Shown one piece after another: positions 34,360 to 39,237 of a DNA stretch of 50,710 bases. The notes below the pieces were generated by a model. The model made no database searches. It was not told the origin of the DNA and was given only the letters and a program-made list of their open reading frames with translations. The first letter of the stretch is position 1, and each line of letters opens with the position of its first letter. The stretch is from a virus (Duplodnaviria > Heunggongvirae > Uroviricota > Caudoviricetes): IMG/VR virus record IMGVR_UViG_2877285697_000009. One strand, given 5' to 3'. Both the position numbers and the translations under genes were made by a program.

Positions 34360-35409
34360 TCAAACGATTAAATTCTGAACTTCCCTGACTGTCTGCTCAA
34401 AACGTCCGGTCTCCAGCTCAACACCAATCGCACGACGCCCCAGTGCCATCGCCGCTTTTACCGTTGAACCCGACCCCATGAAAAAATCCGCAACCAGCTC
34501 ACCAGGACGACTACTTGCGCTGATTATCTGCTGCAGCATTTCTGCCGGTTTTTCGCACGGATGTTTCCCTGGATAGTACTGCACCGGTTTATGCGTCCAC
34601 ACATCCGTGTACGGCACCTGCGCCGTCACGCCAAAATACCGCCGCAGATGCTTATATTCACTCTGCAGTTCCGTATACTGCCGGTTCAGCTCACTGTATG
34701 TGCTGACCAGTTGGTAATGGGACTTTTCCAGTTCTCCCCGCTGATGTTTCTCTTCTGCCACCCGGGCAAACAGCGACTGTAATTTCAGATAATCGCTTTC
34801 GTTCGGTAGCTGCCACTGACTGGCACTGAACCAGTGCGACACCATGTTTTTCTTTCCTGTGGCATCTGCAATCTGTTTTGCCGTTATCCCCAGGGCCGCG
34901 CGCGCATCACGAAAGTAAGAAATCAGCGGGGCCATCACATGCTGTTTCAGTGCACTGCCTTTCGCCGCATACCCGGCATCTTTCGGACGATACGGCCCCT
35001 GATAATGTTCCGCGAACAGAATGCGCTCTGTGGCGGGGAAATACGCCCGCAGGCTTTCCTTGTTGCATCCGTTCCAGTGTCCGGACGGCTTCGCCCAGAT
35101 AATATGGTTCAGCACACTGAAGCGTTCACGCATCATGATTTCGATATCAGATGCCAGGCGATGGCCACAGAACAGGTAAAGACTTCCGGCAGGTTTCAGC
35201 ACCCGCCAGAACTGCGCCAGACACAGGTCCAGCCACTTCAGGTAATCATCGTCGCCCTTCCACTGGTTATCCCAGCCCTCAGGCTTCACTTTAAAGTACG
35301 GCGGGTCCGTGACTATCAGGTCAACAGAATTTTCGGGTAACGACCGGATAAATTCCAGGCAGTCGGCGTTGATTAACTCACAACTGGATATTTTTACAGT
35401 ATTAGTCAT
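34360..35409 (-). CDS. DNA methyltransferase (beta-class, DPPY motif; N6-adenine or N4-cytosine)
   Basis: 349 aa: motif IV DPPY near the N-terminus (SVDLIVTDPPYF), motif I FxGxG near the C-terminus (DFFMGSGST); central about 100-aa insertion. Confidence 0.8.
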   Translation of the reverse strand: MTNTVKISSCELINADCLEFIRSLPENSVDLIVTDPPYFKVKPEGWDNQWKGDDDYLKWLDLCLAQFWRVLKPAGSLYLFCGHRLASDIEIMMRERFSVLNHIIWAKPSGHWNGCNKESLRAYFPATERILFAEHYQGPYRPKDAGYAAKGSALKQHVMAPLISYFRDARAALGITAKQIADATGKKNMVSHWFSASQWQLPNESDYLKLQSLFARVAEEKHQRGELEKSHYQLVSTYSELNRQYTELQSEYKHLRRYFGVTAQVPYTDVWTHKPVQYYPGKHPCEKPAEMLQQIISASSRPGELVADFFMGSGSTVKAAMALGRRAIGVELETGRFEQTVREVQNLIV

Positions 35410-35560
35410 AGATCAATAAGCACTTCTCTGATAGGCTCATACCGCTTTTGCGCAAAGCAGATGGGCCTGAGGTTTGCTTGTGACCCCAACGCATGAGCAG
35501 ATGGCTGGTGAGTGCCCCTAACACCCACCAGCCGCCCATTTACCACAAATAAAAAAGCCT

Positions 35561-35758
35561 TCACTGCGGAAGGCGTCTGTAACAACCGAACTGATAGTCT
35601 GCCAGACCCGCCATAACCAGCTGGGTCAGTATTAACTGGCAGCGTTCGCGTGAAAGGTAAGTATTCTGCGCAATCTCCCCGACAGTCGCCGGTTCGGTGA
35701 CGCTTAATTCATTAAACACCACTCTGGCGGTTTCTGTCATATCCTGCTGTTTCAGCAT
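35561..35758 (-). CDS. Hypothetical small protein (about 65 aa), first ORF downstream of the late terminator
   Basis: MLKQQDMTETARVVFNELSVTEPATVGEIAQNTYLSRERCQLILTQLVMAGLADYQFG...; RBS AGGGA; possible winged-helix-like fold (inference only). Confidence 0.4.
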   Translation of the reverse strand: MLKQQDMTETARVVFNELSVTEPATVGEIAQNTYLSRERCQLILTQLVMAGLADYQFGCYRRLPQ

Positions 35759-35880
35759 GTCTTTTTCCCTTTTTCGGTTAACGTGACACACCAATAACTC
35801 TTGTCGAAAAAGCCAGCAAGCTGAAAGACAGGTATTCACCGCCACCAGCACGTTTACTGTACTGGACCGATTTCAGCCAT

Positions 35881-35906
35881 AAAAAAACCCGCTCGCGGCG
35901 GGTTTA
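35881..35906 (-). terminator. Rho-independent terminator downstream of Q (tR'-like)
   Basis: Minus-strand AAACCCGCCGCGAGCGGGTTTTTTTAT about 70-90 nt downstream of the Q stop. Confidence 0.6.
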
Positions 35907-35973
35907 AGCTGTGTGGCGAAGTAACCACTCTTAACATACTGACATACTTTTTGCGGACAGCACTAATCATTTT

Positions 35974-37367: not shown

Positions 37368-37368
37368 C

Positions 37369-38178
37369 TCAATGAACGGTATCGAGCAGCTTTAACAGCT
37401 CAGGGAATCGGGATTCGAAGAAATGCGGCTGCGTCTCGCGCGGATTTGCAGGACAGGTGATGTTCTTGCCGAACATGCAGCCTTTCGCTGTCAGCGACCA
37501 GAATTTTTTGATGTTGTTAATCGCGGTACGGCTGTATCGTTCGCGCTGCTCGACGATCCCCAGCTTCACCATCTGGTGATATGCCTGATTAGCCGTAAGG
37601 CGGATACCATACTGTTTCAGCAGTGCACTCAGCGACAGCGTGGGGCGACTTGAGCCATCAGGCGCGTCAGCAGGAGCATCAATGGCATAGCGCGGTGCCA
37701 GATTCGGTAAGCCAACAGCCTCCTGGAGTTTCTGACAGGCACCAAGCACTGAAGAGTTAGACAGGTTTAATTCCCGGCGCATAAAGTCCAGCAGAATCAC
37801 ACCAGCCTGCATCTTGTCAGCAGCCTGTCCGGATAATTTTTCCGGTGCGCTGGTTACCATGTCGAAAGTACGGATCACCTTCAGATGGAATGACGGGCTG
37901 ATCCACATTGCATAGGCATACACCAGTTCCTTGCAGACATACGTTCCCCGTTCATTTCCCCCATGAATCATACTCACCGGGTCAACACCCAAATTCTGGG
38001 TGTTGGTCAATTCATGAACAAGCTCAACAGTTTGTTGGCTGGAAATAAACTTTCCCGGCTCCTTGGTTCTAGCATTTGCACCAGATGCTACTGCTGCGCG
38101 ATGCAGATCGTTCAGGCTGTAACGCCCATAAGCATCACGACGAACTTCAATACCATCAATGACCATCAGATTATTCAT
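37369..38178 (-). CDS. KilA-N domain protein (antirepressor-like)
   Basis: Start MNNLMVIDGIEVRRDAYGRYSLNDLHRAA... with RBS GAGGAG; KilA-N-like N-terminal domain. Confidence 0.65.
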   Translation of the reverse strand: MNNLMVIDGIEVRRDAYGRYSLNDLHRAAVASGANARTKEPGKFISSQQTVELVHELTNTQNLGVDPVSMIHGGNERGTYVCKELVYAYAMWISPSFHLKVIRTFDMVTSAPEKLSGQAADKMQAGVILLDFMRRELNLSNSSVLGACQKLQEAVGLPNLAPRYAIDAPADAPDGSSRPTLSLSALLKQYGIRLTANQAYHQMVKLGIVEQRERYSRTAINNIKKFWSLTAKGCMFGKNITCPANPRETQPHFFESRFPELLKLLDTVH

Positions 38179-38197
38179 ACTTCGTTTCTCCTCTTGA

Positions 38198-38587
38198 TCA
38201 GGCGGCTGCACCCGCCGTTTTCTCGTACTTACTGATAGTGATCTCGACCTTCCCTTTCGGGATAACCGGTCCCCACTCCACCAGCATTCTTTTCACCTGA
38301 CTGTCGTCTTCCCACACACCCGCGTGGGTCAGGGCGTCAAACAGCGCCTTGTTATAGTTGTCCAGATCGCGGATCCGGTTATCCGGAGGAAACAACACGA
38401 TCTCCACTGAAGCAGGTGCCGACGTTGGTTTCGGCAGACGACGTAACTGCTCAACTATTGCTGCGCACGCCGCGCTCTGGAATTTTCGCCCCGCCGCGCT
38501 TATCAGGCTCTTACCAGCAAACGCCCCTTTGTTGGGGTGTCGCCAGTACGTGTTCACGCTGGGCGGAAAAGGCAGTATTAGCTTCAT
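38198..38587 (-). CDS. rusA: Holliday junction resolvase RusA
   Basis: 129 aa MKLILPFPPSVNTYWRH...RDLDNYNKALFDALTHAGVWEDDSQV... matches RusA motifs. Confidence 0.9.
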   Translation of the reverse strand: MKLILPFPPSVNTYWRHPNKGAFAGKSLISAAGRKFQSAACAAIVEQLRRLPKPTSAPASVEIVLFPPDNRIRDLDNYNKALFDALTHAGVWEDDSQVKRMLVEWGPVIPKGKVEITISKYEKTAGAAA

Positions 38588-39237
38588 GCCACCATCTCCC
38601 TGACCAGTTTTTCCGCCTGCTGGCGAACCTGCGCCAGAAATGCCTCACCACATGCCTCAAGTTCATCGCGCCCGATGTAGCTGATTGCCGCTCCCTTCCA
38701 GGTCTTGTCGAAAACAGCAATAGCACCAGCGAAGAAAGCACCTGTTGGCACCTGCTTTTCGTCTTTCGGGATAAACCAGGCAGGCAGTTCAAAACCAATA
38801 CGCCCGCGAATAAAAGCAATATGATCTGCATCTTCCGGCCACCACACTTCGCTGGTGGCAGCTTTGATCAGGAAAACATTGCGCCCGCCTTTATCACGCA
38901 TGGCACTGGCATGCTTCATGATGTAACGCATGCCGGTGATGTATTGCCCCTCATGCTGACTGGCGCGGCTGTATGGGGGATTACCAAAGGCAGCACCTTT
39001 AAGCTCCGCAAGACGTTCTGACCAGTCATGCGCCAGCGCGTTGTCTTCCGCCGTGTAATACGCGGCACATTTGGCGTTATCACCGTCAGTGAACAGATCC
39101 AGAACAAACGGACCAAACAGGGTGTTAATTCCCCAGAAAATGTTATCCGGCGTGCGCCACTGATCTCCCACTTCCTTCAGTTCATGGGCTGGTTTATTCC
39201 GCAGTTCCACCAGCGCCTGGCAATATTTATTACTCAT
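38584..39237 (-). CDS. Phage N6-adenine DNA methyltransferase (Dam-like, NPPY motif)
   Basis: 217 aa with GNPPYS motif; typical nin-region phage Dam family. Confidence 0.75.
   Translation of the reverse strand: MSNKYCQALVELRNKPAHELKEVGDQWRTPDNIFWGINTLFGPFVLDLFTDGDNAKCAAYYTAEDNALAHDWSERLAELKGAAFGNPPYSRASQHEGQYITGMRYIMKHASAMRDKGGRNVFLIKAATSEVWWPEDADHIAFIRGRIGFELPAWFIPKDEKQVPTGAFFAGAIAVFDKTWKGAAISYIGRDELEACGEAFLAQVRQQAEKLVREMVA

Follow-up and report, generated by a model that had tools for sequence, protein, structure and literature searches.

We analysed a 50,710-nucleotide (nt) stretch of viral DNA (IMG/VR record IMGVR_UViG_2877285697_000009, hereafter the window) and are confident that it represents a decayed lambdoid prophage of Shigella dysenteriae, of the Shiga toxin (Stx) phage type and without stx, which encodes two adenine methyltransferases, both orphans and both from known families. 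One is a beta-class enzyme encoded at 34360-35409, downstream of the late antiterminator gene Q; the other is a Dam-like enzyme encoded at 38584-39237. A structured leader RNA in front of the beta-class gene and a small winged-helix open reading frame (ORF) accompanying it appear unreported, both being absent from Rfam 15, from what RefSeq annotates at the locus and from the literature searched. The leader is the only candidate novelty of the locus, and we infer its function. We tentatively suggest that it may belong to an undescribed class of cis-regulatory RNA, a bistable translational switch holding a toxic methyltransferase off until a late signal is received. Candidates for that signal are the 65-amino-acid (aa) winged-helix protein in a Com-like role, S-adenosylmethionine or S-adenosylhomocysteine, or the methyltransferase itself, which might act on the mRNA that encodes it; the leader and its gene would form one module moving among lambdoid phages of Enterobacterales, in some cases together with the ORF and in others without it.

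Two orphan adenine methyltransferases of known families

A preliminary description, made from the letters and ORFs of the window, had called the product of 34360-35409 a beta-class DPPY methyltransferase, and this assignment holds. The 349-aa protein matches PF01555 (N6_N4_Mtase) over aa 29-340 at E 2.7e-43, the PADLOC model MTase_II matches it over its full length at E 1e-163, and both DPPY (aa 35-38, 35307-35296) and F-x-G-x-G (aa 310-314, 34482-34468) are intact. Their order is that of the beta class: an N-terminal DPPY, a central target-recognition domain (~34633-35007) and a C-terminal FxGxG. What had been read as a central insertion of about 100 aa is in fact this target-recognition domain, which lies between motifs IV and I in every beta-class enzyme (PMC11551740, PMC5778455). 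In M.EcoGII it comprises residues 135-259 and was modelled as a four-helix bundle (PMC11551740), while solved homologues align to the flanks of the window protein only (residues 8-140 and 262-347).

Membership of the M.EcoGI/M.EcoGII family had not been recognised. Judged by sequence, the gene at 34360-35409 is an ortholog of M.EcoGI/M.EcoGII, a family of non-specific N6-adenine methyltransferases, and its allele is presumably active. As reference for M.EcoGII we used the sequence machine-read from the PDF of the SUPREM supplement, to which the window protein is 94% identical, with a near-identical protein from one of the collected loci (L060) serving as proxy; the latter is 98% identical to the machine-read text, and the few mismatches look like reading errors. 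The window enzyme and the L060 protein are identical at 333 of 349 positions (95%) without gaps, exactly the distance between M.EcoGI and M.EcoGII (333/349), which have been handled jointly as promiscuous adenine methyltransferases (PMC5778455). M.EcoGII was assigned to "a very large family" that includes a very similar enzyme of phage 1720a-02 (PMC5778455), and since this Escherichia phage is also the closest to the window over 33500-39500 (95.4% over the whole 6 kb), the identification gains further support. M.EcoGII, which is available commercially, is a 349-aa enzyme of an E. coli O104:H4 prophage that methylates adenine in any sequence context, and both M.EcoGI and M.EcoGII are silent in the lysogen and toxic when constitutively expressed (PMC5778455).

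The other gene had been described as a Dam-like NPPY methyltransferase in the nin region, and this too was borne out. Its 217-aa product scores 152.4 bits with PF05869 (Dam; E 1.2e-44, cutoff 28.1 bits) and 252.9 bits with TIGR01712, an NCBI equivalog model whose cutoff is 97.05, in each case over the full length; NPPY (aa 86-89, 38982-38971) is intact and aligns with the NPPY of VT2-Sakai orf32. The protein is 98.6% identical to the product annotated as dam in Shigella phage SfV, which places the gene with the SfV type in the small T1/HP1/VT2 phage "mini-Dam" family. Identity with M.EcoVT2Dam, for which we took VT2-Sakai orf32, was ruled out: despite the shared Pfam family and a nin location in both, the two proteins are only 31% identical. 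M.EcoVT2Dam has been reported to target GATC (PMC6602927), and membership of the same family suggests that the window enzyme most likely methylates GATC as well. It speaks against this that orf32, at 31%, is the nearest compared enzyme of known specificity, and that no experimental report on the specificity of the SfV-type subgroup was found in the literature. Sequence searches of solved structures returned no match to the Dam-like protein or to the 65-aa ORF.

Several observations concern the Dam-like gene more loosely. GATC is under-represented over the whole window, with 140 sites against ~195 expected from base composition. A 108-aa LexA-like ORF separates dam from rusA in 1720a-02 and others (L001, 9615-9941); it is missing from the window, where dam overlaps rusA directly (38584-38587). 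The best PHROG match of the Dam-like protein (phrog_33262, positions 283-492 of 495) bears the name phosphoadenosine phosphosulfate reductase, and a PF05869 domain likewise lies under genes annotated as this reductase in Chi-like phages (Chi, SAP012, KPN U2874). These names suggest a fusion; identity to the window protein is 46-48%.

Both genes are orphan methyltransferases by every test applied. In PADLOC, Type II methyltransferase models derived from REBASE cover the whole of each protein, and no restriction-endonuclease model matched any of the nine proteins scanned around the two genes (31.8-42.0 kb), seven of them neighbours; by Pfam, no restriction endonuclease was present among 20 ORFs scanned across the window. 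This agrees with the preliminary description, which had seen no endonuclease partner nearby. The neighbours are RusA, a KilA-N protein, a DUF968/HNHc_6 protein, Q, a replication protein and tRNAs, and as candidates for an adjacent cognate endonuclease Pfam, PHROGs and PADLOC gave only RusA and the DUF968/HNH protein, which are typical of lambdoid nin regions. The early-left and lysis ORFs tested with Pfam comprised only IS1 (insertion sequence 1) transposases and phage functions, with no nuclease and no further methyltransferase. The adjacent cognate endonuclease that marks a Type II restriction-modification system is thus missing.

As first described, the methyltransferases matter little. Both proteins are exact RefSeq entries from S. 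dysenteriae (WP_128875483.1, beta-class; WP_128875485.1, Dam-like), both families have been studied, and more than a third of complete E. coli genomes contain each gene, the beta-class gene being present in 1978 of 5426 and the Dam-like gene in 2120 of 5426 (about 36-39%). The finding is also ordinary in that the role proposed for it matches a published hypothesis. The leader and its winged-helix companion are the only part that deserves follow-up.

A two-fold leader RNA and its winged-helix companion

A late antiterminator gene Q with a tR'-like terminator does precede the beta-class gene, as first described. That the gene follows "immediately after" tR' proved incorrect: the methyltransferase ATG (35409) lies ~470 nt downstream of the terminator, and a 65-aa ORF, a second terminator and a leader of ~125 nt stand between them. 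In the direction of transcription, Q is followed by a terminator, the winged-helix ORF, the second terminator, the leader, the methyltransferase and the tRNAs, with the following features on the minus strand:

35974-36369, minus: late antiterminator Q (PF06530, E 1.6e-52)
35877-35905, minus: tR'-like intrinsic terminator just 3' of Q (hairpin 35905-35885; 8-bp stem with five G-C pairs, T-run)
35561-35758, minus: small winged-helix ORF, 65 aa (phrog_331)
35551-35574, minus: second terminator-like hairpin (stem-loop 35574-35557; GCCUUC/GAAGGC, then U-run)
35410-35549, minus: structured 5' leader RNA of the beta-class methyltransferase (covariance model R1)
34360-35409, minus: beta-class methyltransferase (PF01555)

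Within the leader, also on the minus strand, we distinguish:

35539-35534: S1
35533-35503: P1
35498-35492: S2
35485-35475: S3
35467-35434: P3
35422-35410: S4, positions -13 to -1 before the AUG

The second terminator hairpin contains the stop codon of the small ORF at the junction of loop and 3' arm, and its counterpart is visible at the same place in alignments of other genera. The small ORF encodes a stand-alone protein of phrog_331, a family of unknown function; different sources name the protein "TrmB family" or "DprA-like winged helix", and no PADLOC model matches it. An AlphaFold2 model of the protein, made with 25 homologues, predicts a minimal winged helix (predicted local distance difference test score 91.5). 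For comparison, 80 genome loci ranging from Escherichia to Xenorhabdus, Photorhabdus and Providencia were fetched through alignment of methyltransferase relatives that are 62-96% identical. Of 74 loci analysed, 54 have the small ORF at a near-fixed distance 5' of the methyltransferase, with Q of varying type, and the ORF is absent from about 20% of loci.

The spacer of ~150 nt 5' of the methyltransferase is better conserved than the small ORF itself, and its core motif lies 124-130 nt 5' of the methyltransferase start in loci without the ORF too. Covariance model R1, built from 47 leader sequences, finds a single copy in the window (35396-35549, 142.8 bits) and, across many genera of Enterobacterales, strong copies in ~53 of 78 genome loci, all of the copies in genome loci ending 14 nt inside the methyltransferase ORF. 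Scanning IMG/VR for the motif first, irrespective of neighbouring genes, gave 117 instances, 113 of which abut a methyltransferase start with codon 1 at +130 to +133; the winged-helix ORF was present in 108 of the 110 instances with enough upstream sequence. Use of the leader with other genes was considered and dismissed, as three of the four copies lacking a methyltransferase end at a contig edge and the fourth is truncated. In blastn comparisons, homology to the 80 genomes starts either at 35541-35563, in the leader, or at ~35800-35906, with the small ORF included, and stops at 34375-34412, at the methyltransferase stop codon. These edges indicate that the mobile unit is leader plus methyltransferase, usually together with the winged-helix ORF.

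At the margins of this distribution, one IMG/VR contig (L220, 2695420480_000002, minus strand) has a leader cut after P1, where the methyltransferase has given way to AT-rich DNA with an unrelated ORF of 237 aa, apparently a scar left by recombination at the cassette. The Xenorhabdus and Photorhabdus loci (L134-L161) keep the winged-helix ORF, the 5' GAAAUGGGCGG motif and a P1-like hairpin; their spacer is shorter (~100 nt) and without P2 and P3, and the covariance model scores it at 17-30 bits or not at all.

Covariation in the leader was counted on an alignment of 56 sequences and tested against shuffled alignments and slid partners. The first fold consists of P1 (12 bp), P2, P3 and a short loop-to-tail helix, and 93.9% of its cells are paired, against 28-44% with slid partners. 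Compensatory changes occur at 17 leader pairs, compared with 7.1±1.6 in shuffles and at most 7 with slid partners; pair 54-80 of P2, for instance, is CG in 25 sequences, UA in 10, AU in 9 and UG in 6, amounting to three Watson-Crick types plus a wobble. About as much support exists for a second fold that excludes the first. In it the 5' strand of P2, GCUCAU (35498-35493), pairs with AUGGGC (35539-35534), and the 3' strand of P2 thereby freed, GGUCACAAGCA (35485-35475), pairs with UGCUUAUUGAUCU (35422-35410), the 13 nt directly before the AUG, which no Shine-Dalgarno sequence precedes. This S3:S4 helix is 89.6% paired with compensatory changes at five pairs, and the second fold is the minimum-free-energy fold of both the window copy and a Salmonella copy (z-scores -3.1 and -3.8).

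Since many of the changes are exchanges of G-U for A-U or G-C, the leader would act as sense-strand RNA and not as a DNA palindrome, and because single-nucleotide indels occur among homologues, no reading frame is conserved across it. A protein-coding leader was rejected on similar grounds: the upstream ATGs open ORFs that differ in length and frame between genera, and single-nucleotide indels are common. An ATCAG/CUGAU hairpin before the AUG was set aside in favour of S3:S4, as T/C variation gives a C-A mismatch with its invariant partner. Nor is the leader a known riboswitch or small RNA, as Rfam 15 returned zero matches at E <= 1 for the window and seven diverse loci; RefSeq annotates no RNA feature over the leader at this locus.

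The short RNA region between Q and tR' (35882-35954, minus strand) has a sub-threshold isrK-like match (18 bits, E 0.73), and a Symbiopectobacterium locus (L131, 2914-3116) has true matches to isrK and the C4 antisense RNA 5' of the same cassette.

The prophage and its gene order

A lambdoid prophage fills most of the window, with both methyltransferase genes on the minus strand. In addition to the features given above, it contains:

42879-43571, plus: cI-like repressor, then cro-like and CII-like genes
between the CII-like gene and the Dam-like gene, minus: Rha/Ash protein
39332-40315, minus: replication protein, 5' of the Dam-like gene in transcription order
38584-39237, minus: Dam-like gene, in the nin region between the replication gene and rusA
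38198-38587, minus: rusA
37369-38211, minus: KilA-N protein
36372-37367, minus: DUF968/HNHc_6 protein (phrog_96, a common lambdoid family)
34061-34310, minus: three tRNA genes, anticodons CAT, TCG and TCT (ARAGORN, Rfam), in the same late transcription unit
31833-33557, minus: nanS-p-type esterase, preceded by a further terminator
30625-31781: IS3-family (IS600-like) element, then lysis and morphogenesis genes
47772-48275 and 49128-49631: two IS1 transposase ORFs, early-left region

Stx2a and Stx2c phages, whose stx genes lie 3' of the tRNAs, rank next after 1720a-02 among the phage matches; the window prophage has no stx genes. Its tRNA genes follow directly 3' of the methyltransferase, an arrangement shared with VT2-Sakai, and since VT2-Sakai labels its first tRNA as tRNA-Ile, the CAT tRNA is probably of the Ile2 type. 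Where Stx phages carry stx, between the tRNAs and nanS-p, the prophage has a full-length match to the small RNA STnc100 (33780-33985, minus strand; Rfam RF02076, 143 bits, E 6e-33). The nanS-p ORF is shortened to 574 aa from the 645 aa of VT2-Sakai and adjoins the IS3-family element. Because of this element at the shortened nanS-p and the two IS1 ORFs, the prophage is probably defective.

Control of a toxic methyltransferase: proposal, alternatives and known systems

The position of the beta-class gene places it in what we infer to be a Q-dependent late transcription unit, with expression presumably timed accordingly. In the lysogen, transcripts from pR' would stop at tR' (35905-35885) and any read-through at the second terminator (35574-35557), a double termination that would prevent expression of the toxic enzyme. 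Once the prophage is induced, RNA polymerase modified by Q would pass both terminators, and its transcript would extend over winged-helix ORF, leader, methyltransferase and tRNAs. On this transcript the leader might serve as a post-transcriptional brake that limits or times translation of the methyltransferase, one fold pairing the 13 nt before the Shine-Dalgarno-less AUG and the competing fold freeing them. The enzyme could then methylate adenines of replicating phage DNA in any context; N6-methyladenine (m6A) blocks many restriction systems of Types I, II and III, which progeny might thus resist. Both the non-specific activity of the window allele and its anti-restriction role are presumed from its relatives, and protection of progeny from restriction has already been published as a hypothesis for M.EcoGII (PMC5778455; PMC12707154). 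Heavy methylation by M.EcoGII cuts plasmid transformation by 4-5 orders of magnitude (PMC5778455), a cost that would give reason for such tight dosing. The preliminary description used the plural for late-expressed methyltransferases. Late expression fits the beta-class gene, which lies in the late unit; the Dam-like gene, being upstream of Q, should instead be delayed-early, and would be expressed sooner from pR together with the nin genes.

What the upstream context adds is a concrete and testable model of how a phage controls a toxic methyltransferase, made up of a double terminator, a two-fold leader, a start without Shine-Dalgarno sequence and a winged-helix companion. Were the leader to respond to a small molecule or a protein, thousands of sequenced enterobacterial genomes would contain a regulatory RNA that is new.

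Several points weigh against this proposal. A simple promoter scan did not find the pR' promoter itself. The covariation alignment was fitted to the model, which favours structure, and at 82% mean identity the leader sequences are related closely enough that the number of independent changes is modest. Given the IS3-family element and the two IS1 copies, the prophage may never be induced. The allele itself, judged against 108 family representatives, departs at seven positions where at least 80% of them agree; R111H, P230S and H232Y fall at conserved positions (position 111 is R in 94% of the representatives, position 232 is H in 99% and Y in none), and activity or specificity could differ.

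Some of these points would fit two inert relics in a defective prophage, with the activity of the beta-class allele lost or changed and no methylation taking place. The insertion elements at the shortened nanS-p ORF and in the early-left region, the three substitutions, of which R111H adjoins the conserved dimer interface (residues 97-110 and 116-140; PMC11551740), and the occurrence of the exact allele on only 4 contigs, all from S. dysenteriae, are all consistent with decay. We nevertheless think this unlikely, as neither ORF is truncated and all catalytic and cofactor-binding motifs are intact in both, the leader, winged-helix ORF, both terminators, Q and tRNAs are intact as well, and no insertion element lies between Q and the methyltransferase. 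It also seems rather improbable, though a little less so, that the 125-nt stretch functions as DNA, being a promoter, an operator bound by the winged-helix protein or a boundary of recombination, or that it is a short coding region. The exchanges of G-U for A-U and G-C keep pairing in the sense RNA only, pair 54-80 runs through three Watson-Crick types and a wobble, single-nucleotide indels break every reading frame across homologues, and the promoter scan found no sigma-70-like site in the leader. This is despite the fact that winged-helix folds typically bind double-stranded DNA, that the P1 inverted repeat could suit a dimeric protein, that homology between phages starts exactly at the element in loci without the small ORF, and that a 59-codon ORF overlaps the leader in the window.

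It is very unlikely, in our judgement, that the beta-class enzyme acts mainly on rRNA, tRNA or mRNA during lytic growth, tuning induction or translation. A precedent exists in M.EcoPA8orf6770P, a prophage MT-A70 enzyme formerly annotated as acting on DNA, which a small partner directs to 16S rRNA (PMC10810198), and the window gene has a small conserved winged-helix protein just 5' and three tRNA genes just 3'. However, M.EcoGII is ~90-fold faster on DNA (initial velocity 11.12, against 0.12 on RNA; PMC11551740, Table S3) and methylates up to 99% of deoxyadenosines without a partner (PMC5778455), and the winged-helix ORF is missing from ~20% of loci. The MT-A70 enzyme is of another family, with a DPPW motif and another place in its prophage, and on these grounds the Q-proximal enzyme was judged not to be the rRNA-directed methyltransferase of Gong et al.

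Among the closest known systems are M.EcoGII and M.EcoGI from prophages of E. coli O104:H4 C227-11 (Murray et al. 2018, PMC5778455), which share with the window enzyme the length of 349 aa, the motif order, 95% identity, a prophage location and the lack of an endonuclease partner. The window allele differs by 16 substitutions, three of them at conserved positions, and by its host S. dysenteriae; the leader RNA and winged-helix ORF are not mentioned in the literature found on these enzymes. The Dam-like protein resembles the T1/HP1/VT2 Dam family in its NPPY, its N-terminal W-x-T-P, the lack of a separate recognition domain and a nin location as in VT2-Sakai, whose orf32 is 31% identical to it and ~40 aa shorter at the C-terminus. 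The controller (C) proteins of Type II restriction-modification systems are, like the product of the 65-aa ORF, small helix-turn-helix-type proteins encoded 5' of a timing-sensitive methyltransferase. However, the window locus has no endonuclease and no C-box was identified in it, and its small protein is a winged helix, unlike the Xre-type helix-turn-helix of C proteins.

A further parallel is com-mom of phage Mu, where a toxic, broad-spectrum DNA modification is silent in the lysogen and made late, a small ORF lies directly 5', and mRNA structure, the mom hairpin, occludes the start of the modification gene. In the window, covariation supports both the start-occluding S3:S4 helix and the competing S2:S3 helix, and across loci the small ORF is usually present alongside them. 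Com is a zinc-finger protein that binds RNA, whereas the small protein here is a predicted winged helix, and the leader persists unchanged in loci without its ORF. Mom and M.EcoGII were paired as silent and toxic in a 2025 EcoSal review (PMC12707154), and in Mu-like prophages mom can be replaced by the non-specific adenine methyltransferases Hin1523 and Hia5 (PMC3299994), which are alpha-class enzymes, unlike the beta-class enzyme of the window. We regard the resemblance to Mu com-mom as one of analogy, not homology.

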